Shown one piece after another: positions 21,712-39,487 of a stretch of DNA of 40,000 nucleotides. The stretch covers positions 1 through 40,000 of the forward strand of contig CAZNXQ010000004.1 of the NCBI GenBank assembly GCA_964576895.1, given 5' to 3'. Each line of letters opens with the position of its first letter. Position 1 is the stretch's first letter. This DNA is from an uncultured Desulfovibrio sp. GTDB lineage: Bacteria; Desulfobacterota; Desulfovibrionia; Desulfovibrionales; Desulfovibrionaceae. The notes below the pieces were generated by a model that was not told the origin of the DNA, made no database searches, and was given only the letters and a program-made list of their open reading frames with translations. The position numbers were made by a program, and so were the translations under genes.

Positions 21712-22149
21712 TCAGGCGTTGCGCGTCTCTTCCCCTTCTTCCTCGTCTTCGGATTTGAGGTATTTCAGCAGCTCCCGGTCATGCCCGATGATATGCCTGT
21801 TGAGCCATTTCTCGCACACGTTCAGGAACAGGGTGATGGTTTCGTCGGAATAGTTGGCGCTCTCCATCTGCGAATAGAGGCGCGGAACGATCTTGTCGCG
21901 CATGCCATCGTGGATGGATTTGTGCATCTCGTAGTCCCTGAAGCCGATGGAGAGCATGTATTGCTCCTCATCATGGAAGTGCTTCAGGACGTATGTTTTC
22001 AGGTATTTGACGGCTTCGGCGGCGGCCCATCTGGTGTTGCCCCCGACACGTATCATCTTGTGCAGCCTGTTGATGACGCGGAAAATTTCCTTGTGGGCGT
22101 TGTCGATGCTTTCCACACCGACTTCATAGCGTTCGTGCCATTCCAGCAT
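21712..22149 (-). CDS. Hemerythrin-like (bacteriohemerythrin) protein
   Basis: MLEWHERYEVGVESIDNAHKEIF.. plus the His/Glu/Asp ligand pattern (HFHDEE, HKSIHDG, HIIGHD). GAGGG precedes the ATG at 22149. It is directly upstream of, and co-oriented with, the GGDEF gene. Confidence 0.8.
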   Translation of the reverse strand: MLEWHERYEVGVESIDNAHKEIFRVINRLHKMIRVGGNTRWAAAEAVKYLKTYVLKHFHDEEQYMLSIGFRDYEMHKSIHDGMRDKIVPRLYSQMESANYSDETITLFLNVCEKWLNRHIIGHDRELLKYLKSEDEEEGEETRNA

Positions 22150-22289: not shown

Positions 22290-22310
22290 CTAGAGCATTT
22301 TGCGATTGAA
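22290..22310 (+). repeat. Left fragment of structured repeat copy A; ends in the attL core GCGATTGAA (22302-22310)
   Basis: CTAGAGCATTT matches the left terminus of the intact copy at 36806. GCGATTGAA is repeated at 31610-31618. Confidence 0.6.
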
Positions 22311-22336
22311 GTTACTCAAACAGTTTCAGAAAATCC

Positions 22337-22385
22337 AAGTATGTCCAGTTAGCATGTTATTTCAGCATGTTAACTGGACATACTT
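22337..22385. repeat. 20-bp imperfect inverted repeat just inside attL
   Basis: AAGTATGTCCAGTTAGCATG (22337-22356) and CATGTTAACTGGACATACTT (22366-22385) match at 19 of 20 positions, with a 9-nt loop. Confidence 0.7.
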
Positions 22386-22649
22386 GTCTTATGCCATCCA
22401 CCAAAATCCCTCTGAATCCGGAAAATCCGTTGGTAGACATGCTGGTAGTCTTTTGGTAGGTCAGAGCCGTCGATGATGGCATTTCCCAAGGCCGGACAGT
22501 GCGCCCCCGCCCCGGGGAAATCGGGAGGAGTGATTCCTCCCGCTATCGGCATATTTTCTGTAATCCATTGTGGTAAAAGTATTTTTCAGAAATATGCTGG
22601 TAGCAGTTAGTCCACCCGTACCAAAAAACACCACTCTGGAGGTGGATGG

Positions 22650-24035
22650 ATGAAACTGACCGACACATTCATACGGCATGTCGCGGCCAACGGCAAGGTT
22701 CAGAAGCACTCGGACGGCGGGGGGCTGTTCCTCTATGTCACGCCCACGGGCAAAAAGTCATGGCGGTTGGCGTACCGCTTCGCGGGCAGGCAGAAGCTCA
22801 TTTCCCTTGGGCCGTATCCGTCCGTGAGCCTGCGCGAAGCGCGGGAAAAGCGGGAAGACGCCAAAAAGCTGCTGCGGGAGCATATTGACCCCAGCCAGGC
22901 ACGACGGCAGGCCAGAGAAGCGGCGGCGGAAGCGGCCCGCAATTCCTTTGAGGACGTGGCGCGGGAATGGCATGCCAAGTATTCGCCAAAGTGGGTTCCT
23001 TCATACCGGAAAACGGTCATCCGCATCCTGGAGGAAAACCTCTTCCCCTATGTGGGCAAACGTCCCATCAACACCATCACGTCAAGGGAGTTGCTGACCG
23101 TTCTTCGGCGGGTGGAGGAACGGGGCGCGCTGACCATTGCCCACAAGGCGTTGCGTGATACCGGACGGATATTCCGCTATGCCGTTGTTACCGGCAGGGC
23201 GGAACACGACATTGCCGCCGATTTGCGCGGCGCGCTCGCCCCTGCCGCCAACGGCCATCATGCGGCCATTACCGACCCCGCCGGCGTGGGTGAACTGCTG
23301 CGTAACATTTACGCCTATGAGGGAAACTTTTTCATCTCCCGCGCCCTGCGTCTTGCGCCATTGGTGTTCGTCCGGGGCAATGAGCTGATCCGCGCGGAGT
23401 GGGCGGAAATCAATCTTGAGACGGCGGAATGGCGCATTCCGGCGGAACGGATGAAGATGAAGCAGATCCATATGGTGCCGCTCTCGCGGCAGGCCCTGGC
23501 GATTTTCCGGGAACTGCACGAGAAAAGTGGCGAAGGACGTTTTGTCTTTCCGGGCAGCCGTGTGGGAAACGACGACCCCATGTACAGGGGAGGCCCGCTA
23601 CGCGTTCTGCGGCAAATCGGCTGCGCCACCGGCGAACATACCTTTCACGGCTTCCGATCCATGGCGTCCACGCTCCTGAACGAGCTTGGCTATAACTCGG
23701 ACTGGATAGAGCGACAGCTTGCCCACTGCGAACGCAACGGCGTCCGCGCCGCGTACAATTATGCCGAGTATCTGCCGGAACGGCGGCGCATGGTTCAGGA
23801 GTACGCTGACTATCTCGACAGTCTGCGAGTGGCATCTGACAGTGCCGGAGCGGAAAAACAGAGCGACAAGCCGGAAGACGTTTTCAGAGAAATGAACACC
23901 GATGTCGCCATCGGGAAGAGAGACGAGCGCGCCCAAATCACGGAAAAGGACACGGGCTGGAGCGAGGCGTATCGGGAGAAACTGCGGGCCGCCGGGTATG
24001 ACGGCATGGACATTCTGCAAGCTTGGTACGGGTAG
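22650..24035 (+). CDS. int: Tyrosine recombinase, P4/CP4-57-type integrase (N-terminal DUF4102-type arm-binding domain)
   Basis: MKLTDTFIRHV..GGGLFLYVTPTGKKSWRLAYRFAGRQKLISLGPYP is the typical N-terminus. Catalytic region: FHGFRSMAST.., LAHCE.., VRAAYNYAEY. GGAGG lies 7 nt before the ATG. Confidence 0.92.
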   Translation: MKLTDTFIRHVAANGKVQKHSDGGGLFLYVTPTGKKSWRLAYRFAGRQKLISLGPYPSVSLREAREKREDAKKLLREHIDPSQARRQAREAAAEAARNSFEDVAREWHAKYSPKWVPSYRKTVIRILEENLFPYVGKRPINTITSRELLTVLRRVEERGALTIAHKALRDTGRIFRYAVVTGRAEHDIAADLRGALAPAANGHHAAITDPAGVGELLRNIYAYEGNFFISRALRLAPLVFVRGNELIRAEWAEINLETAEWRIPAERMKMKQIHMVPLSRQALAIFRELHEKSGEGRFVFPGSRVGNDDPMYRGGPLRVLRQIGCATGEHTFHGFRSMASTLLNELGYNSDWIERQLAHCERNGVRAAYNYAEYLPERRRMVQEYADYLDSLRVASDSAGAEKQSDKPEDVFREMNTDVAIGKRDERAQITEKDTGWSEAYREKLRAAGYDGMDILQAWYG

Positions 24036-24142
24036 CGAAAGAGTCCGGCCTGTGCGGAATCCGTGGCCGTTTCTGTGCCGCTCTCCGCCCTGACAGCAAA
24101 TCAAAAGCCTGAAACCTGGCGGCGGGGTTGCACTTTTCCTGA

Positions 24143-24361
24143 CCTCGCCGTCCCCTTTTTCTCTTCGCTGGACACTTCTTCTCCCTCCGCCGCTTCGCTG
24201 AGGAAAGCACATGGTGGCAGGGCTGCAAAGACGGACGTTATCCCAAACCCATAAAGTTGGGGCCACGCACAACCGTCTGGCGGTCAGCGGACATTTCCGC
24301 CCTCGTCAGGGGACTTTCCGGCCAGAACATAACAGGGGAAAATACCGAATCACAGGACTGA
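24143..24361 (+). pseudogene. Degenerate AlpA/excisionase-family (HTH_17-like) remnant
   Basis: This open frame translates to ..ESTWWQGCKDGRYPKPIKLGPRTTVWRSADISALV... It aligns without gaps to the AlpA C-terminal consensus as I recall it (..RSTIYRLMKEGKFPKPVKLG.R.V.W...EI..W). However, there is no ATG/GTG/TTG between the upstream in-frame stop (24140) and the motif, and the N-terminal helix region looks shortened. Confidence 0.4.
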
Positions 24362-25163
24362 AATGCCTTTCCCCTCTGACCGGTTTCCCAAACGCGGCGC
24401 GACCAGGGTATGAACCTTGACCGCGCCGCTTTCTTTTTGCCTCATGCACAATTTTCCGCTATGGTTCCCGAAAAACGGACGAACAAAACAGCCCATTCGC
24501 TTGCCGCAAATGATACGGCTTTTTCCCGAAAACGGGGCGGGTTCTTCGTGGCAGGATGGGGGGTGTGCTACGCACAGCCCCTCATCCTGCCAAAGGCTTC
24601 GCCTCTGGACTCCAAAGAGCGTTCGGCGCTTCGCTTCTCACGCTCGCAAAAAGGCAGGAAAGGCAAAAACGGGAAAGGAATGGGAAGAACTGGAAAGGCG
24701 ACCAAAAAACGCCGTGAAGCGGCCACGGCGAGTCTTGCTTCGCACGGGTTTTCCATATTGAACATTGCCCGGCATTTCCTGAAAGACCAGGAGAAGAAAA
24801 AGAACGGCGTTGCGGGACAGACAAGATCAAGCGAAAACGAGGCATATCTGATTGTTCCCGTGGGGGGCAAGAAGCGAGAGTTCGGCCCCGCCGTATGCTG
24901 TCTACCGGGAAATGGTCAAAAGGCGTTTCCCGAAACAGATGGACGAATCAAGGCTGAAGCGGTCATTGCTCTGTACATGCGCTGTGCCGGATAGACGCCG
25001 CAGGAGATAGCCAACGAAGTATTCAGACACACCCCCGCCCCAAGGGCAAAAACGCAAAACGGATAGACTATGGCCGCAAGGCGCGGCTGGTACACTTGTT
25101 TCCTCCTTATGGCTACCGTGGCTATATGGGCATACCAACCTCAACCATTCGCAGGAGTGATAT

Positions 25164-25919
25164 ATGGCTTCCATTTTCGATGTGTTTGGCAACGGCTCCG
25201 TGGGATCAATATTGAATACATTAGCCAGACAAGCTGGCTCAATGGCCAGCCAGGCTGGTTCTGCAACATCTGATTTTACGCGCAAGGTGCCTGGCGGTGT
25301 GGGTGGTCTTCTTGGCGCGGGCGCTTTGGGCGCATTGCTTGGGAATCTGGCATCAACAGATGTTCTTAAAAATGTCGGCTTGGTCGGCGCAGGTGCGGTT
25401 GCCTGGAACTTTTATAAAAAGTGGGCTGCCAAACAGGAAGGCCAGCAGGCGCAGACAACCAGGGGAGCTACATACGGGGAAAGCTCATGGCCGATCCAAG
25501 CATCAACAGCAGCACCATCTGAAGAAATGGTTGTGATGCAAATTGACCCAACATCCGAGTTGATTATGCGTTGCATGATTTATGCTGCAAAGGCGGACGG
25601 CAACATTGATGCTTCAGAGAAAACTCGCATAAACGCCATTTTAAAAAATATGATGGGCGGAAAAGACGTATCCGCGCTTCTTGCAAAAATGGAAGAAGAA
25701 ACTATTGACCCTTCAAAAATTGTCGCCGCCGCCCTGCCCCAACAGGCTGATGACATCTATCGGCTTTCCTGCTCTGTAATTGACATAGATCATTTTATGG
25801 AGCGTGGTTATCTGGATGCACTGGCTAATGCTCTGCATATTGCGCCCGCTATGCAGCGTGAAATTGAAGAAGAAGCCGGAGCGGCACGCAAGCAACTTGC
25901 CGCTTACATTGAAAGTTAG
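25164..25919 (+). CDS. DUF533 / TerB-like (YebE-family) membrane protein
   Basis: Gly/Ala-rich N-terminal region with a hydrophobic segment (GGLLGAGALGALLGNL..VGLVGAGAVAW), and a C-terminal TerB-like helical domain (..MIYAAKADGNIDASEK..IYRLSCSVIDIDH..ERGYLDALANAL). AGGAG precedes the ATG. Confidence 0.75.
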   Translation: MASIFDVFGNGSVGSILNTLARQAGSMASQAGSATSDFTRKVPGGVGGLLGAGALGALLGNLASTDVLKNVGLVGAGAVAWNFYKKWAAKQEGQQAQTTRGATYGESSWPIQASTAAPSEEMVVMQIDPTSELIMRCMIYAAKADGNIDASEKTRINAILKNMMGGKDVSALLAKMEEETIDPSKIVAAALPQQADDIYRLSCSVIDIDHFMERGYLDALANALHIAPAMQREIEEEAGAARKQLAAYIES

Positions 25920-25927
25920 GAAATCAA

Positions 25928-25973
25928 TGTATTAAACACTCCACAGATTAAATCCTGTGGAGTGTTCAATACA
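25928..25973. terminator. Long hairpin between the convergent DUF533 and Fe-S membrane genes
   Basis: TGTATT-A-AACACTCCACAG, loop attaaatc, CTGTGGAGTGTT-C-AATACA gives 18 paired positions with one mismatch. There is no clear U-run on either side. Confidence 0.45.
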
Positions 25974-26007
25974 TAGTACACAAATCGAGACAAGAGATAC
26001 GGTGAAG

Positions 26008-26604
26008 TCAGGAAGCGTTTATTGAAACCTTGCTTCTCCTGTGGCGAAGCTGACATATCCACTGCGTCATGGTGCCCATAGGGCAGAAGGCGCACCAGGT
26101 TCGCGGCTTGTACAGCGCCATCATGACGAGGCCCAGGAGAAAGGAGGTGAGCATGATGCTGTAAAAACCGAAGCTGAATTGGGCCACCCATTTCGGTACG
26201 GATGTTTCCGTATATGCCCAGTGCCAGGGGAGCTGGAATGTCCAGAACAGGCTGACGGTCTGGCGCAGAGACGTTGCTCCAGCCCCCACCAGCCACGTCT
26301 GAAAGAGCATATTCCCAAAGACCGCCAGGAAGAAAAACAGAAAACCATATCTGAACCAGCGGGAATACAACCACGCAGGCGTCGGTCTGTTGCGTGAATA
26401 CTTCAGCTCATGGCCGAGCTTCATGCACAACTGGCCGCGCCCGCAAAAATGATTGCAGAACAGCTTGTTCCCCCCGAAGATGGCGAAGCCAAGCGGTACA
26501 AGGAAGTCGATCATTCCCAGCCAGGCGAAGAGGATATTGAAGAAGCCCAGGCTGAAATACAGGATCGTCCATATCCACAGATAGTCATACCAATGTCGCT
26601 TCAT
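26008..26604 (-). CDS. Polytopic membrane protein with CxxxC/CxxCP motifs (Fer4_5 / NapH-MauN-like membrane core)
   Basis: There are several hydrophobic helices. Cysteine motifs FCNHFCGRG and WCAFCPMGT fall at loop positions, as in the NapH/MauN/RdhC-type family. An ATGA overlap with the upstream ferredoxin gene is present (26601-26604). Confidence 0.7.
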   Translation of the reverse strand: MKRHWYDYLWIWTILYFSLGFFNILFAWLGMIDFLVPLGFAIFGGNKLFCNHFCGRGQLCMKLGHELKYSRNRPTPAWLYSRWFRYGFLFFFLAVFGNMLFQTWLVGAGATSLRQTVSLFWTFQLPWHWAYTETSVPKWVAQFSFGFYSIMLTSFLLGLVMMALYKPRTWCAFCPMGTMTQWICQLRHRRSKVSINAS

Positions 26605-26813
26605 TGGGCGTCCCGCCTTTGCCTTTCCACAAGTTCAATGCAGTTTGCCGGACACAATGCGGCGCACCTCCCGCAGCCGACACAGGCGTCGGCCCTGATT
26701 TCGGCCCAGCAGCCATGCACGACTGTAGCGGCATGGCGCGGGCAAACGCTTTCACAGGTGCCACAGGCGACACAATTTTTTTGATTGACCACGGCATGAC
26801 GTCTGGATGGCAT
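26601..26813 (-). CDS. 2x[4Fe-4S] ferredoxin (70 aa)
   Basis: CVACGTCESVCP and CVGCGRCAALCP motifs. The start overlaps the DUF134 stop (TGATG at 26811-26815). Confidence 0.8.
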   Translation of the reverse strand: MPSRRHAVVNQKNCVACGTCESVCPRHAATVVHGCWAEIRADACVGCGRCAALCPANCIELVERQRRDAQ

Positions 26814-27193
26814 CAGTATTCTCCCCTGGTTGCCGGGCTATTTTCCGGAGATTGGCGCGGGTTCCCGAATCTGCGGCAGCCATGACCACAGTGCGGCCCT
26901 CCTTCGCACAACCGATAGTCGCCCCCCTCAATAATCAGCAGTTTTCCATTCACAAGCATGTCGGCCAGTTTCTTCCTGGCGCTGGCATAGGTTGCCTGAA
27001 TGCTGGTGCGGACAACATTCATTTTTTCGGCGCATTCCTGCTGCGTCATATCCTCAAGATCTATGAGGCGGATGGACTCGTATTCATCAACAGTCAGGAT
27101 GACAGGCGTTGCTGCTGAACGGAACCCCAGAGGCGCAAATCGCGTATTCTCCGGGAGGCAGCAGACTTTTCTGCATTTTCTGGGTCGTGGCAT
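26813..27193 (-). CDS. DUF134 (UPF0251) predicted DNA-binding protein
   Basis: [19 protein letters not shown].., [57 protein letters not shown] matches the DUF134 pattern. The start is taken at the second Met (27193; AGGA 6 nt upstream); 27199 is possible. Confidence 0.8.
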
Positions 27194-27302
27194 TGGCATT
27201 CCTGCAAAAAGCTAAAATGAAACTTTTTTCATAGGCGTTTCTTGCCGACATGGCATGGGGCATAGGAAAATATCGAATCCCATGATGGGAAAGGACAATG
27301 TC

Positions 27303-27335
27303 AGGGCGGTTTACGATTCTCTCGTAAACCGCCCT
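27303..27335 (-). terminator. Perfect 13-bp hairpin just after the DUF5320 stop
   Basis: AGGGCGGTTTACG, loop attctct, CGTAAACCGCCCT. The downstream sequence on the minus strand is only weakly U-rich, so it could be a terminator or a processing/stability element. Confidence 0.4.
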
Positions 27336-27340
27336 TGAGA

Positions 27341-27568
27341 CTACCGTGAAGAAAGCAGTTCATTTATCCGCGAAAGTTCCCCTTCAAGGGCTTTTTTCCT
27401 TTGGATCAGCCGTTCGGTTCCATCTTCGCGGGAGAATTGTTTTCCATAATTCATGCAGCAAGGCCCCTGGCCGTTTTGAGCGCCGAAGCCCGACTGGGCG
27501 CCCATATGCCGGAACCGTCTGCAATGTTGCCTTGCCCCACGCGCTCCTGCTCCATTTTGTCCTGGCAT
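27341..27568 (-). CDS. DUF5320-family small protein (Gly-rich N-terminus, C-terminal coiled coil)
   Basis: MPGQNGAGARGA..C.. followed by ..LIQRKKALEGELSRINELL resembles the DUF5320 layout that often accompanies DUF134 genes in anaerobes (from memory). AAGGAG lies 6 nt before the ATG at 27568. Confidence 0.65.
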   Translation of the reverse strand: MPGQNGAGARGARQHCRRFRHMGAQSGFGAQNGQGPCCMNYGKQFSREDGTERLIQRKKALEGELSRINELLSSR

Positions 27569-27581
27569 GGCGTACTCCTTT

Positions 27582-27638
27582 GTTATTGACATATGCCGTT
27601 AACTTTTTGTGGCAAACTTTATGACATATGTCAATAAC
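27582..27638. promoter_or_regulatory. 14-bp perfect inverted repeat pair upstream of the DUF5320/DUF134 genes (candidate operator)
   Basis: GTTATTGACATATG (27582-27595) and CATATGTCAATAAC (27625-27638) are separated by 29 nt. The pair starts 14 nt upstream of the DUF5320 ATG, and each half contains a TTGACA-like hexamer. Confidence 0.4.
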
Positions 27639-27644
27639 TATGCG

Positions 27645-27689
27645 ATAAAAATTCAAATGCCTCCCCCGGTATCCGGGAGAGGCATTTTT
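27645..27689 (-). terminator. Bidirectional-looking intrinsic terminator after the multiheme cytochrome gene
   Basis: GCCTCCCCCGG-tat-CCGGGAGAGGC (27659-27683). The minus strand continues ATTTGAATTTTTAT and the plus strand continues ATTTTT. It lies 26 nt after the cytochrome stop. Confidence 0.6.
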
Positions 27690-27708
27690 CTCAATTCAAG
27701 TCAGTGTG

Positions 27709-30180
27709 TTAGCAATCTTTCCTGGCACGACGGCGTCGAATGATCCAGATCAGCACGGGCAACGCCAGCACCGCAGCCACGATACCCAAGACCTTGACCC
27801 AGGCAATGCTGATGTTGTTCTCGCGCAATAAGCCCGCGTGCGCCTGTGGCGACGCGAAATCCAGGTCAAGGACTTCCGCCATTTTGCCCAGCATGGCGAT
27901 GGGAATGGCCCCCTGAGGGATGTCCTGATGGCAGGCAAGGCAGGTGTCACTGCGTTCCAGCGCATTGCGCTGTTCAGGCGTCAACGGCATGGAGTCGGGC
28001 CAGTGCGTATCCACGGTCTGCACCTGTGTTCCATCCGTGCGCAACACCTGCATGAAGTCGCCGTGCAAGCCCCGGATAGCCTGAATCTGGGGCTGGGTGA
28101 AGCGGCTCACGTTGCGACCGTCGGGGGTACGCACGTCTGCATAGCGAACCTTTTCGGGATGCAGGCCATACCGACCGCCATCGATCCCGTAGCCCATAGC
28201 CGCCGCATTGCCGTGGCAGTCCGCGCAGTTGCGGCTTTCACGCGAGGAAGTATGCGGGTTGAGCGGGGCCAACTCCATAGCGTTATAGCCCTTTTCGGTT
28301 TTAGCCACCTTATTCCAGGCAAGGGTCTTGCCGTCCGGACCGATGACCGTGCCCACGGTCTGGATGACGCCCACCAGCGGGGTGACACGCCCTTCGCCGT
28401 TGATGCCCAGCGGCGGGTTTTCCCAGCGTACATGACTGTAGTCCCAGGAAGTCGGCGCGCCGGGCTGATCGCTCATCTGTCCCTTGCGATCCGCCGGGCT
28501 GCCGTCAGGCAGACTCCGCTCCGCCGTCTTCAGCCAGTCTGTGGAACGCTGCCTGTAGTCCAGAGCATACTGATAGCCATAATACTGAGCTGCCCAAGTG
28601 GAGTGGCAGGCATAGCATTCCAGCTTTTCCATATGGCGGCCCACACCAACCATAGCTGTGGTGGCCAGGGCGGGATTGGCCCACTTGTTGGCCTGGCGCA
28701 GCCCCTTGAGGGGAATCAGCTCAAAATCATGACCATTGGCCGAATGCACGATGACCTTGTCCCCCCGGCGCACCACATTGCCAAAGGGATTGCCGCGTGC
28801 GGAAAGCAGGTAGCCATCCTCAGCATCGGAGGTATGGGCAAAGTCCTTTGTGACCTTCATGGCTTCCCGGCTCACACCGCGCGGCTTGTTCCAGTCCACA
28901 GGCTTGCCGAATTCATCGCCATAGCCAAGTGGCAGCTCCCAGGGATACTTGTCTGGCGTTCCATGACAGTCCGCGCATTCCACTTCGATGGTGGCCAGGG
29001 TGGTCGCGCCGATATTGCCATTACCATGCATGGACGTGCTCAGATGACAATCCTGGCACAACAGGCCTGCTTCCGTGCCGTTAACATCCTTGAGAGCGAA
29101 ATGGGCATCCTCACGGATATACTTGAACACATAGCCGCCATTGGCCTTTTGGGGTTCCCCCTGAGCATCAAAGGGACCTCGATGGTCACCATGACCGAAG
29201 GCCATAAGGCCCTGATAGGCGTGGCCGATACGCCTGCCAGCCGCATGGCAGGCCGCGCAGGTATTGACCTGGATTCCCGAGAACGACGCCCCGTTCACCG
29301 TTGTTACGGAATGGCGTGTTCCCTGCATGGCGTGGGTCATCAGATGGCCGGGCTGATCCTTGGGCAGCGCCTTGTCGCCGCCTTCGTAATACCCTTCGTT
29401 GCTGTACAGCGTATGGCAGGCGGCGCAGCCCACACCCCGGAAATGTCCCCTGTCCTGATAGCCCTTGCCGCTCAGATGACAGGCATTGCAGTTGCGCAGA
29501 TAGGTGAACGCGGCCTGTTCCGGCTGTTCGGCCAGCTTCGCCATGTCCACTTCAGGGATCTGTTGCAATTTTTCCGGGAACTGTCCGGGAAAACGCCCGG
29601 CCAGATCCTTCATGTAGGCCCTGTACGCCTCCGTTCCAAGGCGCGGCGTCATACCGTCCGGGTCATCAAGATCGTGGTCGCCGTAAATGTGGTCATGGTT
29701 CCGGGTTCCGATGCCCCAGCTCCAGGTGATGGCCTTCATTTTACCCGCATCCGTGTTCATGTGCGAACGTCTGACCGCATAGACATGATCCGCGTGACAC
29801 TGACCGCAGGTCGCGTCATTGAGTTGCAAAGCGCCGGGTGTGGCTGTGAAGGTCGTCAGCCGACTCCCCGCCGGGGCCAGGCTGTGTGCGATGTCCTTGT
29901 TCTGCACTTCCGCAGGCGTTCCGGCATGGCAGACAACACAGCCGTTGGGGTCGCCCAGCTCCCTGCCTTTAGCGAAAATGGCCTGCATCATGCCGGATTC
30001 CGGCGGGCGGGGCGGCTCAATTCCCTGATGACAGGCAAGACAATACTGATTTTCAGCGGGAAAAATTTTTGCGGCTCCGGTTGTTGCCGCTGTTGCCGCT
30101 CCAGCGGTATCCGCAGAGCCCGGATTCATAGCGAACATCAGGGAGACACATAAAAACAGCAGAGGCAATGGCGATTGCAT
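27709..30180 (-). CDS. Undecaheme c-type cytochrome, periplasmic with C-terminal membrane anchor (823 aa)
   Basis: There are eleven CxxCH motifs, with first Cys at residues 47, 81, 125, 231, 252, 308, 375, 402, 522, 652 and 747. An N-terminal signal peptide (..LFLCVSLMFAMNPGSA) and a C-terminal hydrophobic helix plus a basic stop-transfer (IAWVKVLGIVAAVLALPVLIWIIRRRRARK) are present. A strong AAGGAGG precedes the ATG at 30180. Confidence 0.9.
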   Translation of the reverse strand: MQSPLPLLFLCVSLMFAMNPGSADTAGAATAATTGAAKIFPAENQYCLACHQGIEPPRPPESGMMQAIFAKGRELGDPNGCVVCHAGTPAEVQNKDIAHSLAPAGSRLTTFTATPGALQLNDATCGQCHADHVYAVRRSHMNTDAGKMKAITWSWGIGTRNHDHIYGDHDLDDPDGMTPRLGTEAYRAYMKDLAGRFPGQFPEKLQQIPEVDMAKLAEQPEQAAFTYLRNCNACHLSGKGYQDRGHFRGVGCAACHTLYSNEGYYEGGDKALPKDQPGHLMTHAMQGTRHSVTTVNGASFSGIQVNTCAACHAAGRRIGHAYQGLMAFGHGDHRGPFDAQGEPQKANGGYVFKYIREDAHFALKDVNGTEAGLLCQDCHLSTSMHGNGNIGATTLATIEVECADCHGTPDKYPWELPLGYGDEFGKPVDWNKPRGVSREAMKVTKDFAHTSDAEDGYLLSARGNPFGNVVRRGDKVIVHSANGHDFELIPLKGLRQANKWANPALATTAMVGVGRHMEKLECYACHSTWAAQYYGYQYALDYRQRSTDWLKTAERSLPDGSPADRKGQMSDQPGAPTSWDYSHVRWENPPLGINGEGRVTPLVGVIQTVGTVIGPDGKTLAWNKVAKTEKGYNAMELAPLNPHTSSRESRNCADCHGNAAAMGYGIDGGRYGLHPEKVRYADVRTPDGRNVSRFTQPQIQAIRGLHGDFMQVLRTDGTQVQTVDTHWPDSMPLTPEQRNALERSDTCLACHQDIPQGAIPIAMLGKMAEVLDLDFASPQAHAGLLRENNISIAWVKVLGIVAAVLALPVLIWIIRRRRARKDC

Positions 30181-30250
30181 GAGACCTCCTTATACCACTA
30201 TATCATTATCTGGACTTACTATACCAGCAAAAAAGTGTCCAGAGGAGGTT

Positions 30251-30350
30251 CCATCAACTCAGGGGAATTTTATGGAACTGCATCATAAAAAATATATAAT
30301 TATTCCAACATATTATTTATCAGCGCAATCACTGTGACCATCAACTCAGG
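30251..30350. repeat. 13-bp direct repeat CCATCAACTCAGG x2 (30251-30263, 30338-30350)
   Basis: The two copies are exact and 87 bp apart. They bracket the AT-rich region between the mobC stop and the cytochrome RBS, and the second copy overlaps the mobC stop codon. Confidence 0.7.
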
Positions 30351-30699
30351 ATACATGCCCGACCTTCAGTCCATTTTCCGCTGAAGCACAGGATGCGAAC
30401 TCGGCAATACGCCGCTCGATGCCCGCCAGCGCCGCCAATACCTCCACGGCTTCCGCCGCCCGTTTGCAGGTATTGGCCCATCTCGCAAGCTGATTGATGT
30501 TCGCGCCGATGCGGGCCAGCTCTCGCAGCCACCGTTTCTCTTCCGGCGTTTTTCGCAGGCGGATGCCAAGGCAGGTCGGGCGGACATACTCCGACATACT
30601 CATGCCGTGCAGCCCGGCGTTGAAGCGGAGGATGTCGCGCTCCTCCGGGAACACGCGCACGATGACGGCGGCGGTGCGGACGGGCTTGACGCGCTTCAC
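30346..30699 (-). CDS. mobC: MobC-family relaxosome accessory protein (orphan; no relaxase follows)
   Basis: ..AAVIVRVFPEERDILRFNAGLHGMSMSEYVR.. and the family motif L.ELARIGANINQLARWAN. GTG start at 30699. Confidence 0.75.
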   Translation of the reverse strand: MKRVKPVRTAAVIVRVFPEERDILRFNAGLHGMSMSEYVRPTCLGIRLRKTPEEKRWLRELARIGANINQLARWANTCKRAAEAVEVLAALAGIERRIAEFASCASAENGLKVGHVS

Positions 30700-31609
30700 C
30701 GCTTTCCCTGCCTTTGGGCTTTCCGGGGTTCAAAGGGGCAGCGCCCCTTGCCAGCCGTGAGTCCATACGCGCAGCGTATAGACGAAACGTAGGCTGGCCC
30801 TCGGAGACAATGCCGGACGAATGAACAGGCATCCGCGCAAAAACGGGGACGCATGATGCGGGCACCAAGAATATGGCGGGTGCGTATCAGACGTGGAGCG
30901 GAGTTGTATCCGGCGTGTCGCTGGTGGGTATGACGGCGGCATCCAGTAAGCATTCGGCTTGCAGGAAAATGGTATGTGAGGAACGCCTGAACACTATGCG
31001 GAAGCCGTGCAGTCAGTATCTGACACAAGACAAGGTCAGCATGATGCGCATGACGGAGCGGGCATCTGAAGCAGGGCGGGAGGCAACGCTATATGTATCG
31101 GGAAAACTCTGTGGAGCATACGCCGGGACAGATTTGCATGTATCGTTTCCGCCGCGTGTCAATATGCGGGAAAACCGTGAACGGCGAGAAACGCTTTTTT
31201 TATGTCTTTGTGCTTCTGGTCTGCGAACTTCCTTTGACCGAGCCCCCGCCGGAGGCTTCCTCGTCCGTCGCCCGCGAGTGTATGAGGCCGGAAGCCAGGG
31301 CATGAACGTCAAGGCCCGCGAAGCGGCCCAACAGGGCTTGGCCTTGACGGAATGCCCGCTTCCGGCATCCATGCGGGAGTGACGGACGAAGAGCCGGGAT
31401 TTCCCATTTCCCGGCAAGGATACATGAGAAATGTATGGCAAATGAAAATGCCGGGAGGCTTTCACCTGCCCGGCATGTGGAGACTGACCATTGAAGGCTG
31501 ATACAGTCCTCTACAAGCCAGAAAGAATGTTGGTACTATAGTTGGTATAAATATTTCATAAAAATATTTTCATAATATATTTCATTATATTATAAAAATA
31601 ACACAACTC

Positions 31610-31750
31610 GCGATTGAAAATATCCATTTTCAATCGCGGCGTCGCCTGCCATTTCGCGTCCAGAACGCGGTCTGGACGCTTATTCGGCGCGGGCGTCTGC
31701 TCACGCAGCCGCCAGCGCGTTTACGCAATTTCATTGCGAAAACGCGCTGG
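31610..31750 (+). repeat. Right part of structured repeat copy A (attR core GCGATTGAA at 31610-31618, hairpins, conserved 65-nt core)
   Basis: Hairpin 1: CGCGATTGAAAAT-atcc-ATTTTCAATCGCG (31609-31638). Hairpin 2: GCGTCCAGA-acgcgg-TCTGGACGC (31655-31678). The terminal hairpin is CCAGCGCGTTT-A-CGCAAT-ttc-ATTGCG-A-AAACGCGCTGG (31712-31750). By hand alignment, roughly 85-90% identical to 36873-36938. Confidence 0.7.
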
Positions 31751-32561
31751 CGCGCGACAGTCCGGGGCTGGTGCCGAAGATGACGAGTTCCATCCAGTCC
31801 AGGGCAAAATCCAGCGCGGCCGCATCGCCCTCCGCGCTGTCTTCCATGATGCGCGCCTGGAGGTCGGGGGCCACCGTCACCCGCGAAAAGATGCGCATGG
31901 CGCTGATGAGCTCGCGGAATTTGTCCAGCTGGTACAGGCAGAGCACGGCCATGGTGGCCAGCCGGGGTTCCAGCGGTTTTTCCGTGGCGCGCACCATGGC
32001 CATGAGGCGCATGTAGCGGTCATTGAAGCGCGAGTACGGCTCCATGCCCTGGTCGGCAAACCATTGGGCGGGCGTGCGCGCCGTGCCCTGGTCAAAGCCG
32101 CGGCAATGCTCCTCCCGCACCAGGAAGAAGCGTTCGGCCACCCCCTCCATGCCCATCCGGGTGCCGCGGCCCAGGGGATAGCAGCGGCAGGCGCCGGGGC
32201 GGTCGTCATAGACCGAGCAGCCGGCCGGGGTCACGAAGGGGCAGGGGGCGTCCGGGCTTTCGAGCATCCGCAGGAGTGGCAGGGGAAAGCCCGTGTCCGG
32301 GAAGGAACGCAGGGTGGTGAAGGTGTGCAGGAAATCGTCACCGGCCATGCCGAGCTGGCGGCGCAGCCGCAGGACGTCATAGGGCGTGAGCGGCAGGGTC
32401 AGCTCCGCGCAGCAGCGGTTGAAGCAGGGCATGTGCGGCCCGCAGTCGAACACGAAGGTTTCGTCCGGCCCGATTTCGGGCAGGCTTTCCAGGAGCTCGC
32501 GGCTCTTGTCGTTGCCGGAATGTTCCGCGTCGGAGGGGGCGGGGGTGGGGGTGCCGTCCAT
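31731..32561 (-). CDS. YkgJ-family (UPF0153, CxxCxxCC) cysteine-cluster protein
   Basis: FDCGPHMPCFNRCCAEL and CPFV..GCSVYDDRPGACRCYP motifs. ATG at 32561 (MDGTPTP..). The last ~7 codons and the stop lie inside the repeat hairpin. Confidence 0.75.
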   Translation of the reverse strand: MDGTPTPAPSDAEHSGNDKSRELLESLPEIGPDETFVFDCGPHMPCFNRCCAELTLPLTPYDVLRLRRQLGMAGDDFLHTFTTLRSFPDTGFPLPLLRMLESPDAPCPFVTPAGCSVYDDRPGACRCYPLGRGTRMGMEGVAERFFLVREEHCRGFDQGTARTPAQWFADQGMEPYSRFNDRYMRLMAMVRATEKPLEPRLATMAVLCLYQLDKFRELISAMRIFSRVTVAPDLQARIMEDSAEGDAAALDFALDWMELVIFGTSPGLSRASAFSQ

Positions 32562-32586
32562 GGATGCTCCCGTGGGCCGCCTGGGG

Positions 32587-33411
32587 TCAGAACGCAAGCC
32601 GGCGGCGTTCGCGGTTGATGAAGATGACCGAGTCCGTGAAGCCGAAGGAGCGGGCGTAGTCGCCCAGCCGGTCGAACTGGCGGCCCACATCCTCCGGGGC
32701 ATGCGCGTCCGAGCCGAAGCAGATGTCCACGCCCGCTTCCCGCGCAAGGCGCATGACGGGCGGCGCCGGATACGGTTCCGCAAAGCCCTGGCGCAGCCCG
32801 GCGGCGGAAACCTCCATGGCCGTGCCGCTGGCGGCCAGCGCCTCCAGCGCCGTCATGAGGGGCGCGCGGCTTTCCGGACCTTCCAGCCAGGCGTGAAAAT
32901 CGTCCCAGGCGCGCAGCTTGATGAAATCCGGATGCGAGGCCACCTGGACAAGACCGCTGCGCGCCATGGAGGCCATTTCGTAAAAATAGGCGGCAAAGCG
33001 GGCGCGGCGTTCCGCCGTGCTGACGCGGGCGTCCCAGCTGGCGGGGGCGCCCACGGACATTCCGTCCAGATAGTGGAGCGAACCCAGCACATAATCAAAG
33101 GGCCACGCCGCCACAAGCTCGCGCATATATGCCAGCCGCGAGGGCAGCCAGTCCAGTTCCAGGCCGAGGAGAACGCGCGGGCCGTCCGGGGGCGCCGTTT
33201 CCCTGAGCCGCAGCACTTCAGCCGCATAGCGGGGAAAGTCGCGCGCAAGGTCGCCCGTGTAGAGCGCGCAGTGGAAGCCCTCCGGCAGGGGCGAATGCTC
33301 GGAAAGGCCGAACCACGCGAGCCCGGCGGCGCGGGCGGCGGCCACCATGCCCCCGGCGCTCGCCGTGCCGTGCGAGGCCAGGGTGTGGTTGTGCAGGTCG
33401 GCGCAGATCAT
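32587..33411 (-). CDS. PHP-family phosphoesterase (histidinol-phosphatase HisJ/HisK-like)
   Basis: MICADLHNHTLASHG.., SEHSP, GLELDW and GSDAH are metal-binding His/Asp motifs of the PHP family. ATGA overlap with the ribF stop. Confidence 0.75.
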   Translation of the reverse strand: MICADLHNHTLASHGTASAGGMVAAARAAGLAWFGLSEHSPLPEGFHCALYTGDLARDFPRYAAEVLRLRETAPPDGPRVLLGLELDWLPSRLAYMRELVAAWPFDYVLGSLHYLDGMSVGAPASWDARVSTAERRARFAAYFYEMASMARSGLVQVASHPDFIKLRAWDDFHAWLEGPESRAPLMTALEALAASGTAMEVSAAGLRQGFAEPYPAPPVMRLAREAGVDICFGSDAHAPEDVGRQFDRLGDYARSFGFTDSVIFINRERRRLAF

Positions 33412-34388
33412 GGCCGGCCCCCGCAGGCGGCAGCCGGGACATCAGGCGCGGGGGGCGCGCCCCGACCGTCCCCCGTGGCGAGGAGACGGCGCGCGGCGGC
33501 CACATCGGCGCCGATCTGGCGGCTGAGCGCCCCGGCATCGGCAAAGCGCCGCTCCCCGCGCAGCCGCGCCACAAATTCCAGGCGCAGCTCCTGGCCGTAG
33601 AAATCTCCCGACGCCTCCAGCAGAAAGCTCTCCACCGTCAGCCGGCCGCCGCCGAAGGTGGGCTTGCAGCCGATATTGGTGACAGCGTCGAAGGTTTGGC
33701 CGCCGCAGCGGGCGCGCGTGGCGTAGACGCCGTTGCCGGGCGGTAGGGTCGTGGCGCCGTCCAGATTGGCCGTGGGAAAGCCCAGGCCCGCGCCGCGCCC
33801 CTCGCCGTGCGCCACCGTGCCGGAAAGCGCATAGGGGCGCCCCAGCAGGCGCTGCGCCAGGGCCACGTCGCCTTCCGCGAGGCAGTGCCTGAGCCGCGTG
33901 GAGCTGACCGGGGCGCCGTCGGCCAGTACCGCCGGCACCTGCTCCACCCCGAAGCCGAGCTCGCGGCCGATGCGCCGCAGCAGGTCGGGATGCCCGCTCC
34001 GGCCCCTGCCCAGGGTGAAATCATGCCCCACCACCAGCTCGCGCGGCGCGAGCGGCAGGAGATATTCGCGCACAAAGGCTTCCGGCGGCAGGGCGGCCAG
34101 TTGGCGGGTGAACGGCAGTTCCAGGATATGCCGGACGCCGAGGTCCTCCAGCAGGGCGAAGCGCTGCTCCCGCGTGCTCAGCGGCGCGTGCGGGCGCTCC
34201 GGCGTGAGCACGGTGCGCGGATGCGGCCGGAAGGTCACCACCACGCAGGCAAGGCCGCTGGCGCGGCAAACGTCGAGCGTGCGCCGGATCAGGGCCTGAT
34301 GGCCCAGATGGACGCCGTCGAAATTGCCGATGGTCACGGCGGAGTTTCCCAGAGAGGCGAAGACGGCGGCGGAATCTGCAATCTGCAT
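33408..34388 (-). CDS. ribF: Bifunctional riboflavin kinase / FMN adenylyltransferase
   Basis: VTIGNFDGVHLGHQALI, VVTFRPHP, a C-terminal kinase domain (GRGAGLGFPTANL.., GVYA.., TNIGCKPTF, ESFLL..DFYGQELRLEF) and the conserved F..L.. motif. Confidence 0.9.
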   Translation of the reverse strand: MQIADSAAVFASLGNSAVTIGNFDGVHLGHQALIRRTLDVCRASGLACVVVTFRPHPRTVLTPERPHAPLSTREQRFALLEDLGVRHILELPFTRQLAALPPEAFVREYLLPLAPRELVVGHDFTLGRGRSGHPDLLRRIGRELGFGVEQVPAVLADGAPVSSTRLRHCLAEGDVALAQRLLGRPYALSGTVAHGEGRGAGLGFPTANLDGATTLPPGNGVYATRARCGGQTFDAVTNIGCKPTFGGGRLTVESFLLEASGDFYGQELRLEFVARLRGERRFADAGALSRQIGADVAAARRLLATGDGRGAPPAPDVPAAACGGRP

Positions 34389-34419
34389 GGCAAGGGCTCA
34401 GGAACGCGGCTTGCGGCCG

Positions 34420-34464
34420 GGGACGCTGGAGCGTTCGCGCGATTTCATCGCCAAACCGCTCTAG
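34420..34464 (+). repeat. Partial, diverged copy C of the structured repeat (terminal hairpin only)
   Basis: GACGCTGGAGCGTTCGCGCGATTTCATCGCCAAACCGCTCTAG aligns to the last ~45 nt of copies A and B at roughly 80% by hand. The hairpin is retained by compensatory changes. The terminal CTAG provides the stop codon of the minus-strand gene 34461-34934. Confidence 0.55.
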
Positions 34465-34934
34465 ATCAGCCTGTCGAAAATGAAACGGTACGTCCCGCGA
34501 ATGTGGAGCGCGAGCTTGAGCGTCAGCGTGCGGCGCGCCTTTTCATCCCGATCGGTAAAGGACGTGAGATGCCGCGCCACTTCGTTGAAATCCGCGTCGC
34601 CCGTGGGCTGGAGCATGCCCCAGTATTGCCGCGCCCGTTCCGCCGCGAGCCTGGCCCCCTTGTCCGGATGCCGCGTCAGATAGCCGTGAAGGAAGGTGGC
34701 GAACATGGCATCCGCGTCGCTGGGGAAGGAGCGGGCGAGCGCAAGGCGCCAGAGCGCCATATGCAGCCCGCGCAGTTCCAGGATCATCTGGCGGCGGCGC
34801 AGGAACTGAAAACGCCCGATGCCCGCGAGCTCCAGCTCGGCCGTGAAATCCGCGTCTTCCAGAAGGGCGGCGAAATTGTCCAGCGCCACCTGGGCAATGC
34901 CGGGTGCATCGTCGAGTTCCGCAAGATTCTGCAT
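34461..34934 (-). CDS. Hypothetical protein (157 aa)
   Basis: The ORF has coding-like composition and an ATG at 34934 preceded by GGAG. I recognise no family. Confidence 0.5.
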   Translation of the reverse strand: MQNLAELDDAPGIAQVALDNFAALLEDADFTAELELAGIGRFQFLRRRQMILELRGLHMALWRLALARSFPSDADAMFATFLHGYLTRHPDKGARLAAERARQYWGMLQPTGDADFNEVARHLTSFTDRDEKARRTLTLKLALHIRGTYRFIFDRLI

Positions 34935-35039
34935 GGCGCTCCGTCCGATTAACAACTGGCGGGATCCTGAAGAAATGCCCGGAGTCCCGCGCGAGTTTCG
35001 GCGGCACGGGTGCCGCCGTTCCCACCTGCGGGAGTGTGG

Positions 35040-36761: not shown

Positions 36762-36805
36762 ACAACGACCTTTACGCGCAGGGCGCGCCAAAATCGGGAA
36801 GAACG

Positions 36806-36938
36806 CTAGAGCATTTGGCTGATGAACATATCTGTCTCACAGATATTTTCATCAGGTTTCGCCGCCTCATTACGGCGCGGGCGTCCGCTCCCGCGTCCGC
36901 CAGAGCGTTCACGCAATTTCATTGCGAAAACGCTCTAG
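36806..36938 (+). repeat. Intact copy B of the structured ~130-bp intergenic repeat
   Basis: Termini are CTAGAGCATTT .. AAAACGCTCTAG (imperfect terminal inverted repeats). Internal hairpin: GATGAAcATATCTGT-ctc-ACAGATATtTTCATC. Terminal hairpin: AGAGCGTT-ca-CGCAAT-ttc-ATTGCG-aa-AACGCTCT. It lies between the divergent helicase and hisI genes. Confidence 0.7.
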
Positions 36939-37111
36939 GGCGGCGGCTTCCTCGGACTGTGTGGGCTGCACCCTACGCCATTCCCGCCGGTTTCGCAAGG
37001 CGCCGGGCGGGGAAATGCGGCTTGCCCGTCGCGGGGAATGCGCTTAGAACAGGGGGCGGTGCGCGGGCGCGCATTCCGGCGCAAAGAATTTCGCGGCCTG
37101 GAGGAGGGAAC

Positions 37112-37588
37112 ATGGGCAAGGGGCACGAGACGGCGGCCACAACGGGCACGGGGGCGCGGGCGCTCCCCGGCGCGGAGTTCGCCCCGGCGTTCGGGGGCGG
37201 CCTGCTTCCGGCAGTGGTGCAGGACGCCGCCAGCGGCGAGGTGCTCATGCTCGCCTGGATGAACGAGGAGGCGTGGCGCAGGACGCTGGAGAGCGGGGAA
37301 GCCCATTTCTGGAGCCGCAGCCGCCGCGAGCTCTGGCACAAGGGCGCCACATCGGGGCATGTGCAGCGCGTGCGCGCCGTGCGCCTTGATTGCGACAGCG
37401 ACGCCATTCTTCTGCTTGTGGAACAGGCGGGCGGCGCGGCCTGCCATACCGGGCACCGCACCTGCTTTTTCCGGGAATGGCGCGAGGGCGCGCTTGCCGT
37501 GTGCGCCCCCATGGTTTTTGACCCTGCGGCCGTCTATGGCGCGGCCGCCGCATCCGGCCCCAACCCCAGTCAAGGGAGCGACGCATGA
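37112..37588 (+). CDS. hisI: Phosphoribosyl-AMP cyclohydrolase
   Basis: [24 protein letters not shown].., FWSRSR.ELWHKG.TSGH.Q.V..V.LDCD.D.ILL.V.Q.G.ACHTG..CFF. GGAGGAGGG precedes the ATG at 37112. The ORF-track start at 36815 lies in the repeat and was rejected. Confidence 0.85.
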
Positions 37589-38478: not shown

Positions 38479-38607
38479 GGAGGCTCCCGTTGCCTGCGGT
38501 TTTGCCGGAATGGGGCCTGCGGCTGCCGGACGGCCAGCCCTCCTGGGGAAGATTGCGGGAATGCCGCTCGCCATGCCGTCACGGCCGTAGGCCACGGGCG
38601 CGGAAGC

Positions 38608-39417: not shown

Positions 39418-39487
39418 GGGGGCGGCGTCCTTCTGGGGAAGCACTGTCGCCGCCCTGGAGCGGGAGAGGGAGGGCGGCCCGCGGCGC

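Follow-up and report, generated by a model that had tools for sequence, protein, structure and literature searches.

An island whose P4-type integrase appears to target the terminal inverted repeat of an IS630-family miniature transposable element in Desulfovibrio

In a 40,000-nucleotide stretch of DNA from an uncultured Desulfovibrio sp. (GenBank assembly GCA_964576895.1, contig CAZNXQ010000004.1, positions 1 to 40,000 of the forward strand; hereafter the window), a 9,299-bp island occupies positions 22311-31609. We propose that it is an integrative mobilizable island whose P4/CP4-57-type tyrosine integrase targets the terminal inverted repeat of an IS630-family MITE (a miniature transposable element with inverted repeats) and not a transfer RNA (tRNA) gene, a reading to which we assign a probability of roughly 85%. 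It starts from what the sequences show, namely where the island begins and ends, that its empty sites exist, what the repeat is, that insertions arose independently many times, and that outgroup integrases are mostly found at tRNA or tmRNA genes. An earlier note, made from the letters of the window alone, had described an integrase island inserted into the hairpin arm of a repeated intergenic element.

The island stands out by its composition. It has 55.8% G+C, compared with 65.6% in the left flank (1-22310) and 68.3% in the right flank (31610-40000), and the outermost 100 island bases fall to 38% at the left edge and 21% at the right edge. The abrupt change that the earlier note had seen at both edges is thus borne out. 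A perfect 9-bp direct repeat, GCGATTGAA, bounds the island, with its two copies where the note had placed them (Table 1), and a third copy on the reverse strand (31629-31637) forms the opposite hairpin arm. These three matches in the window compare with 0.51 expected, and none of the shuffles reached three. Longer or alternative direct repeats, which would have moved the edges, were sought around the island and none was found.

Contigs that carry the empty site define the edges exactly, with 22311 as the first and 31609 as the last base of the island. We compared contigs and loci of relatives, which are given here by L-numbers (L001 and so on). The hemerythrin-domain protein encoded to the left of the island is found in identical form on 12 metagenome contigs, two of which span the whole intergenic region, and the island is absent from all 12. 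The locus exists in three states. L001 reads gtcaCTGGCacgcgac and has neither the MITE nor the island, L003 has the MITE with an intact hairpin but no island, and the window has both. The remaining hemerythrin contigs end inside the repeat, yet show an intact hairpin. L003, L008 and L009, contigs from three separate samples, each contain without any change the 40-nt junction that had been predicted for the island-free allele, CTAGAGCATTTTGCGATTGAAAATATCCATTTTCAATCGC. For the exact integrase sequence of the window and for its DUF134 protein there is no record in the contig index, and a second site for the same island was not found there. Insertion at the hemerythrin locus looks uncommon among the sampled relatives, because none of the 12 contigs has the island and the window integrase sequence is not on record.

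Neither junction contains an RNA gene of the expected kind. ARAGORN found no tRNA or transfer-messenger RNA (tmRNA) in the window, Rfam at gathering thresholds gave no match in the window, and permissive Rfam scans of both junctions, the empty site and other repeat copies returned only chance hairpin matches to microRNA and small RNA models. The absence of a tRNA-like acceptor, stated in the earlier note, holds in both searches. The attachment to tRNA or tmRNA 3' ends that is classical for P4/CP4-57 integrases, which is a habit and not a strict definition, is not seen here.

From comparison of termini we conclude that the repeated intergenic element is a family of non-autonomous, IS630-derived MITEs, dispersed over genomes of gut Desulfovibrionaceae, with GAGCATTTT termini flanked by TA or TG, because a full-length insertion sequence (IS) has matching ends. 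This IS of about 1 kb (L025 1650-2643, Desulfovibrio sp. ZJ369) encodes a helix-turn-helix (HTH) protein and a DDE_3 transposase (E 7e-37), with a weak HTH_Tnp_IS630 match, in two overlapping frames, which we take to be the arrangement of the IS630 family. Its ends read GAGTATTTTGCTTTT... and GAGCATTTTCACTTT... (GAGYATTTT...), and GAGCATTTTCACTTT is identical in 15/15 terminal bases to MITE copies at L021 5373 and L072 9550. The IS630 family duplicates a TA target site, often in CTAG. TA is found at both ends of the window copy 36806-36938, of L010 21138-21321, of L066 315-364 and of the L025 IS; several MITE copies have TG on one side instead of TA, and location inside CTAG is common. CTAG contains the stop codon TAG, in keeping with MITEs that often lie exactly at gene ends (L010, L080). 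The repeat thus has terminal inverted repeats in common with an autonomous IS630-family element, and it is small, non-coding, polymorphic in presence and multi-copy, with three loci in the window. Its members in related loci comprise near-perfect palindromes of 29 bp, 37-39 bp and 50-53 bp, which are numerous and fold strongly (z = -7 to -9), and composites of 130-190 bp.

When the two flanks of the island are joined, the rebuilt element has a perfect 12-bp hairpin (DNA fold -13.4 kcal/mol, z = -5.0). In line with the likeness drawn in the earlier note, it has the CTAGAGCATTT terminus and an identical 22-nt core, ACGCAATTTCATTGCGAAAACG, in common with the uninterrupted copy 36806-36938. In the integrated state the right-hand hairpin has 13 bp, because the last island base also pairs. 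The part left at attL consists of a C-TA-G target or duplication (TA at 22291-22292), the B half-site GAGCATTTT (22293-22301), the spacer GCGATTG (22302-22308) and AA (22309-22310). In the contigs without the island, L003, L008 and L009, this terminus runs straight on into the remaining repeat sequence. Beyond attR the inner hairpin continues to 31637 and is followed by a second hairpin at 31656-31679 and, at 31712-31750, by a palindromic unit of 39 bp; the degenerate right MITE terminus, GCGC-TG, ends at 31749. The L003 copy is without a stretch of about 57 nt that holds the 39-bp unit in the window, which points to a modular repeat. The free-standing 39-bp unit of the window, which was missing from the list in the earlier note, reads CTGGAGCGTTCGCGCGATTTCATCGCCAAACCGCTCTAG and lies just past a riboflavin kinase/FAD synthetase gene (33408-34388, minus strand).

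REP and BIME elements are short palindromes with a GTAG/CTAC tetranucleotide, and their cognate Y1 (RAYT) transposase is flanked by REPs. Such a family was considered for the palindromes of 29-50 bp and was dropped, as the termini match the full-length IS630-type IS. An IS200-like Y1 transposase gene is located just past a further repeat end (L025 2841-3200). The L025 IS itself interrupts the 3' end of one ZJ369 integrase copy and is flanked by a TA duplication, so that here the parent transposon of the target MITE would have hit an island that targets its relatives.

The integrase gene starts 339 bp inside the left edge, as had been noted, and it is intact. Its product matches Arm-DNA-bind_3 (3.7e-25), Phage_int_M (6.3e-33) and Phage_integrase (2.2e-16) in Pfam and aligns with NCBIfam PRK09692 over residues 4-391. 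The CP4-like structures 3ju0/3jtz match residues 1-99 and the CPS-53 structure 2kj8 matches residues 97-197. The domain order is therefore that of P4/CP4-57 integrases, with an arm-binding, a SAM-like core-binding and a catalytic domain; VRGNEL, HGFR and a C-terminal AH...YNYAEY are candidate active-site motifs read from the translation, where enzymes of this class have the catalytic residues Arg, Lys, His-x-x-Arg, His/Trp and Tyr.

Integrases with 88-94% identity are numerous, mostly in uncultured Desulfovibrio. Their contexts, gathered by exact-protein look-ups and a scan of species-representative genomes, comprise at least 17 different gene neighbourhoods, with left neighbours as varied as a DUF533 gene, an Ech hydrogenase/HypA cluster, DHDPS, flagellin, a sigma-54 activator, a chemoreceptor and an FAD oxidase. 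In all of these contexts the island starts with GTT(A/G)C directly to the right of TAGAGC(A/G)TTTT-N7-AA, and farther left there is no similarity. Among the hosts of the clade are several Desulfovibrio species, Candidatus Mailhella merdavium and a Bilophila metagenome-assembled genome (MAG). Such a terminus is also found beside an integrase of 59% identity (L072), and a degenerate version of it beside one of 67% (L070). In Desulfovibrio sp. ZJ369 there are five intact copies of the integrase gene, which have 94-97% identity among themselves and lie on five scaffolds, each with a different left flank. The suggestion that the integrase was retargeted to a dispersed repeat, and would be met beside other copies of that repeat in other genomes, is upheld by these at least 17 contexts and by the five copies in ZJ369.

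The more distant relatives behave differently. At 29 of 37 loci with outgroup integrases (35-49% identical), a tRNA or tmRNA gene ends 150-600 nt upstream on the same strand. These loci are mostly from Proteobacteria, and two belong to Desulfovibrio MAGs, where the gene is tRNA-Leu in one case and tmRNA in the other. Among the ingroup islands, none lies against a tRNA or tmRNA gene. In Desulfovibrio sp. SGI.169 an internally deleted, 96%-identical integrase fragment (L067 9867-10230) starts 57 nt after tRNA-Met; it has lost its first 35 codons and attL. A very similar tRNA-Met (L010 8208-8283) lies 1.4 kb upstream of attL at a normal MITE junction. The tRNA-Met was examined as a possible true target and rejected, given the distance of 1.4 kb in L010 and the 5' truncation and internal deletion in L067. 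From the sequences, the L067 fragment is probably a later deletion at the same locus as L010 and not a case of targeting.

Both junctions were recovered in four islands, and in each of them the block of identity is N7+AA. The spacers at attL and attR are GCGATTG and GCGATTG in the window, CGTTTTG and CGTTTTG in L019, GCATTTG and GCTTTTG in L010, and CAAAGCG and CACAGCG in L080. In all four the base before the spacer is T at attL, where it comes from the MITE, versus C at attR, where it comes from the island, and AA follows the spacer. Spacer positions 1-2 vary between islands and always agree between attL and attR. This places them within the segment where the partners must match, and the left edge of the overlap would then be the first spacer base; the right edge is not fixed, because AA is invariant. 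These alignments are best read as a 7-bp overlap, which might extend to as many as 9 bp. Integration across a one-base heterology, with alleles segregating after replication, would fit the single mismatches of L010 and L080, and later mutation is equally possible. For L016, L020-L027, L059, L074, L083 and L085, a spacer search and homology to known right ends gave no convincing right junction; most contigs stop before it or the ends are decayed.

The target end reads TA-GAGCATTTT-N7-AAAAT(G/A). The chromosomal site is GCATTTT, N7 and AAAATAT, and consensus copies form a perfect 10-bp dyad, GAGCATTTTC...GAAAATGCTC. The island site, CAACTC, N7 and AAGTTAC, is also a dyad (AACT/AGTT) and resembles the lambda core layout CAGCTTT-TTTATAC-TAAGTTG. 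The candidate core half-sites are GAGCATTTT/AAAATGCTC on the chromosome and CAACTC/AAGTTAC on the island, with the proposed right-end CAACTC at 31604-31609. In L010 and L019 the repeat goes on past attR and matches the uninterrupted copy L010 21138-21321. The MITE subfamily is the same in these two, but the island of L019 entered the other of its terminal repeats, and this, together with the look-alike target of L080 discussed below, suggests that the integrase reads a sequence pattern and not a particular repeat copy.

In the mechanism that we envisage, the integrase would pair the island site CAACTC-GCGATTG-AAGTTAC with a MITE end of the same spacer. Two short inverted half-sites flanking a 7-bp spacer would provide the usual core layout of a tyrosine recombinase, and the symmetry of stem, 7 bp and stem in the MITE end is like that reported for tRNA loop sites. 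Strand exchange would take place at the edges of the common 7-bp spacer, so that the spacer and two common A's, GCGATTGAA, would remain at each side of the island as a direct repeat of 9 bp. The circle junction is predicted to read ...TATAAAAATAACACAACTC-GCGATTG-AAGTTACTCAAACAG and the restored chromosomal site CTAGAGCATTTTGCGATTGAAAATATCC. GTTGGTA-type repeats at both ends are candidate arm-type sites, which would hold the N-terminal domain of the integrase. The motif (G/T)(C/T)TGGTA (KYTGGTA) occurs 13 times in the window where 5.2 are expected, and 7 of the 13 lie within 320 bp of the island ends. The block of three on the left is invariant across relatives, and further copies are found at 22596-22602 (plus strand) and 22619-22625 (minus strand). 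The right end has 87% identity with its counterpart in the L010 island and about 82% with the right ends in L019 and L080. For the inverted repeat 25 bp inside attL, possible roles are as an operator, as a site for an accessory protein or within an origin of transfer (oriT).

Several points weigh against our proposal. The empty site in L001 is CTGG, compared with the CTAG expected for an IS630-type target, and L001 may be a secondary (microhomology) deletion and not the ancestral state. Right junctions come from only 4 of about 17 islands. The exact crossover and cleavage positions and the assignment of half-sites are put forward by likeness to lambda-type core sites and are to that extent conjectural. 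The L080 target is a degenerate look-alike that overlaps a stop codon and has a spacer not ending in TTG, so the sequence rules are looser than the consensus suggests. In viral contigs, neither the attP junction pattern nor the P'-arm pattern, which would match attL or attP, had a single match; the P'-arm pattern in JGI metagenomes gave one integrated copy only (L069, in the same context as L019). We infer the activity of the island from population polymorphism. The supply of landing sites is a count over sampled loci.

The same observations can be read without the integrase. The whole of the island is enclosed by a MITE in which both termini are kept, the presence of the MITE is polymorphic at this locus, and related genomes have an IS630-family transposase with matching ends, so that island and MITE ends together could be an oversized non-autonomous transposon moved in trans by that transposase. 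This would leave unexplained that an uninterrupted MITE-only allele with the exact predicted junction exists and that the island has a 9-bp repeat of its own inside the MITE. Moreover, the four complete islands occupy MITE copies that differ in subfamily or in which of the two terminal repeats was used, and every one of them has a matching spacer of its own; arm-type repeats and an intact integrase gene flank the junctions. We consider a purely transposon-borne island very unlikely. We give even less credence to a one-off accident, in which an integrase that normally uses tRNA or tmRNA genes hit a chance secondary site in the repeat. The 9-bp repeat is indeed short, more distant relatives do target tRNA or tmRNA genes, and there is the decayed fragment of a close relative after tRNA-Met in L067. 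An accident is hard to reconcile, however, with at least 17 independent contexts that use the same repeat terminus and with an ingroup in which no island abuts a tRNA. The L067 fragment is truncated and its attL is gone, and the position of the tRNA-Met in L010, 1.4 kb from a normal MITE junction, suggests a later deletion.

A related question is whether the integrase recognises sequence or fold. The earlier note had equated the recombination core with the 5' arm of the inner hairpin. In this copy the N7 spacer does coincide with that arm, but the target is the MITE terminal inverted repeat, GAGCATTTT-N7-AAAAT. If the folded single-stranded hairpin were recognised, as integron integrases do with attC, one would understand why the target copy folds so strongly, why many family members are near-perfect palindromes and why the hairpin sequence differs between copies with its layout kept. 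We find this very improbable. The inner hairpin was rejected as recognition element, as the targeted copies L010, L019 and L080 do not have it; the conserved feature is the sequence TAGAGCRTTTT-N7-AA. An arm-binding domain and arm-like repeats at both ends are typical of the double-strand intasomes of the lambda/P4 type, and the reconstructed attP does not fold (z = 0.08). Because three targets are without the hairpin and attP is unfolded, we regard the hairpin, on present alignments, as incidental.

Targeting of MITE ends by the integrase would give the clade a large supply of landing sites. The related loci, 354 kb together, hold 19 unoccupied GAGCRTTTT-N7-AAMAT sites, 11 with spacers that end in TTG, as do the spacers of all occupied sites but one. 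In ZJ369 the spacer TTGATTG is common to three islands and recurs at five unoccupied sites within the 65 kb that were sampled. The window spacer GCGATTG occurs in a different flank in another species (L022). The other two MITE loci in the window have different spacers (GCTGATG, CGCAATG and others) and are probably not substrates for this island. Each island would probably be limited to MITE copies with its own spacer, with at most one mismatch. The idea of many landing sites per genome thus stands for the clade, which uses a multi-copy MITE, and has to be narrowed for a single island, which probably reaches only the subset with a matching spacer.

More tentatively, and with considerable doubt, the spacer could be seen as a changeable address. 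Integration at a MITE that differs by one base, followed by excision with the new spacer, would allow a stepwise walk across MITE subfamilies, with the IS630 transposase as a second, independent route for MITE and island together, which the MITE ends retained around the island would allow, and the whole would form a re-addressable landing-pad system. The different attL and attR alleles in L010 and L080 would then result from such one-base-different integration. If this were true, the MITEs would be natural multi-copy, re-addressable landing pads, with one mobile element parasitising another.

Table 1. Features of the island, its junctions, the MITE copies and the flanking genes in the window.
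Feature	Coordinates	Strand	Basis
Hemerythrin-domain protein, 145 aa, left flanking chromosomal gene	21712..22149	-	Pfam Hemerythrin, E 9.5e-14
Outer part of MITE left terminal inverted repeat, left at attL	22290..22310	+	Sequence; same terminus in at least 17 contexts
attL copy of 9-bp repeat; proposed overlap (crossover) region plus 2 shared bases	22302..22310	+	Sequence
Island, mobilizable-island family member with damaged transfer module	22311..31609	+	Empty-site contigs, G+C, homology to L010 and L016 islands
Inverted repeat, 21-bp arms (95% complementary, 9-nt spacer), 25 bp inside attL	22336..22386	.	Kept in all close relatives
Three direct repeats GTTGGTA / GCTGGTA / TTTGGTA, 11-12-bp spacing, candidate arm-type sites (P' arm)	22429..22458	+	Motif count, conservation
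P4/CP4-57-type tyrosine integrase, 461 aa, intact	22650..24035	+	Pfam, NCBIfam, PDB
Degenerate relaxase-gene remnant	24410..24994	+	blastn and protein similarity to L010
DUF533 (TerB-like) cargo protein	25164..25919	+	Pfam DUF533, E 3e-37
Cargo protein with 4Fe-4S binding domain (Fer4_5)	26008..26604	-	Pfam
DUF134 DNA-binding cargo protein, sigma-70 region-4-like domain	26813..27199	-	Pfam, NCBIfam
Multihaem c-type cytochrome, 823 aa, cargo	27709..30180	-	Pfam Cytochrome_C7 and MtrC/MtrF-like domains
A+T-rich right end (P arm), two GTTGGTA repeats (31529-31535, 31541-31547)	31529..31609	+	Sequence, motif
attR copy of 9-bp repeat	31610..31618	+	Sequence
Remainder of split MITE	31619..31749	+	Sequence; absent from L001
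Right flanking chromosomal open reading frame, CxxCxxCC-domain protein, 3' end runs into MITE; start uncertain	31731..32783	-	Pfam CxxCxxCC
Unoccupied 39-bp palindromic unit of same repeat family	34426..34464	.	Sequence
Unoccupied composite MITE copy, TA at both ends inside CTAG; spacers GCTGATG and CGCAATG	36806..36938	.	Sequence

Related islands carry the integrase followed by a NikA-like protein and a MOB relaxase, sometimes an AlpA-type excisionase, and variable cargo, and judged by this gene content they are integrative mobilizable elements (IMEs). The window island has att sites, flanking direct repeats and an integrase, but its nikA-like gene and the relaxase N-terminus are deleted in comparison with L010. 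What is left of the relaxase gene matches L010 in two pieces by blastn (24541-24665 to L010 12085-12207 and 24667-24806 to L010 13483-13622), is 37% identical to residues 337-458 of the L010 relaxase and has no Pfam domain. An IME has a relaxase or mobilization module of its own and an oriT but lacks a full conjugation apparatus. Judging from these genes, the window copy is best called an IME-family member whose transfer module is damaged. With nikA and most of the relaxase gene lost, the module for its own mobilization seems to be no longer functional, and the island could plausibly still excise, because the integrase is intact and the repeats are perfect.

The cargo, with its cytochrome, DUF533/TerB-like, Fer4_5 and DUF134 proteins, resembles a small redox module. 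The cytochrome has a partial NCBIfam match to ExtM with 162 bits, well under the cut-off of 800 bits; ExtM is the cytochrome of the selenite/tellurite reduction operon. A DUF533 gene also stands directly upstream of attL in two unrelated contexts, next to a 92%- and a 67%-identical integrase (L010 8952-9644, L070 8882-9523, L071 7089-7778), and the homologue inside the window island has 75% nucleotide identity over 135 bp. In the A+T-rich cargo (about 20% G+C) of the related L016 island there is a run of about 18 AAG triplets (14290-14345). On the right flank, the MITE lies inside the extreme 3' end of the CxxCxxCC gene (window 31731-31760; L001 1360-1410; L003 1560-1600). The called product has 278 aa without the MITE in L001 versus 274 aa with it in L003, which indicates that the MITE supplies a new C-terminus and stop codon.

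P4-type islands are usually taken as tied to one tRNA or tmRNA gene, which caps the copies at one per site. On our reading, a clade in gut Desulfovibrionaceae (Desulfovibrio, Bilophila, Mailhella) has exchanged this one address for the terminus of a transposon relic that exists in many copies, and one genome can accumulate five or more islands with different cargo. The dependence would be layered, with the mobilizable island using the MITE and the MITE depending on the IS630 transposase. Some sets of metagenome contigs (L002-L009, L074-L079, L086-L089) end at these features, with L086-L089 breaking about 135 nt past the integrase gene and L002-L009 inside the MITE. These ends fit with both features being multi-copy in these genomes, and the system may help to explain contig breaks at the repeat and just past the integrase gene. 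Finders that anchor islands on tRNA genes likely miss such islands. Genetic tools for sulfate-reducing gut bacteria, which are hard to engineer, would have an attractive natural landing pad in such a short dyad, whose 7-bp spacer is free and which recurs many times in a genome, and the clade offers a testable model of how a tyrosine integrase changes its target.

In its domain architecture (Arm-DNA-bind_3, formerly DUF4102), in the integrase gene that reads inward from about 340 bp inside attL, and in the arm-like repeats at both ends, the island is similar to the genomic islands and satellite phages with integrases of the P4, CP4-57 and CPS-53 type, and the nearest outgroup relatives of its integrase use tRNA or tmRNA 3' ends as these do. 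In contrast to them, its site is a multi-copy MITE terminal repeat with several islands per genome, and the common core is only 9 bp, because no gene end needs restoring. A non-tRNA site is also used by the dusA-specific P4-like (DUF4102) integrases (PMC4482086), and SGI1-related islands are found at dusA (PMC8409611). There, too, a P4-type lineage left tRNA genes for another conserved sequence; the target is a single-copy protein-coding gene with one site per genome, whereas here it is a dispersed mobile repeat.

Dispersed repeats are known as landing sites of other elements. IS1397/ISKpn1 and IS621 insert into REP/BIME, IS4321/IS5075 into the 38-bp terminal repeats of the Tn21 family, and Neisseria Nf prophages into dRS3. 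These elements resemble the present case in that a dispersed repeat or the terminal inverted repeat of another transposon is the specific landing site. They differ in using DDE or DEDD (IS110/IS1111, Piv-like) transposases, whereas the recombinase here is a tyrosine integrase of the lambda/P4 type, and what it carries is a mobilizable island of several kilobases. As with integron integrases and attC sites (VCR-type), a tyrosine recombinase acts on many imperfect palindromic repeats in one genome. However, attC sites act as folded single-stranded hairpins with extrahelical bases, are part of the cassette system and are served by an IntI integrase with a characteristic extra domain, while here the sequence is conserved and the repeat comes from an unrelated transposon; the integrase is of the P4 type and not IntI, and the targeted copies are without a common hairpin.

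IMEs with NikA-like and MOB relaxase modules have been reviewed (PMC5704250), and streptococcal IMEs insert in oriT of integrative and conjugative elements (PMC7563843). The relatives of the window island likewise carry an integrase, a NikA-like protein, a relaxase and variable cargo, and like the streptococcal IMEs they insert into a functional site of another mobile element. The host site here is a MITE end, though, and the window copy is without nikA and most of the relaxase gene. The repeat is similar to IS630-family ISs and MITEs in its 15/15 terminal bases, its flanks of TA (on one side TG in several copies), often in CTAG, its non-coding units of 29-190 bp and its presence in multiple copies. 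It is unusually heterogeneous in comparison with them, running from units of 29 bp, in which two ends overlap, to composites that join two dissimilar palindromic units, and its empty site at this locus is CTGG, not CTAG. Keyword searches of the literature found no description of this repeat or of Desulfovibrio MITEs, and none of a P4-type integrase or mobilizable island that targets a MITE, REP or IS inverted repeat; one candidate precedent describes an unrelated repeat (PMC4755523). Set beside these systems, a P4-type integrase clade that uses MITE ends is a variation on known repeat-targeting and tRNA-departing elements and not a new category.

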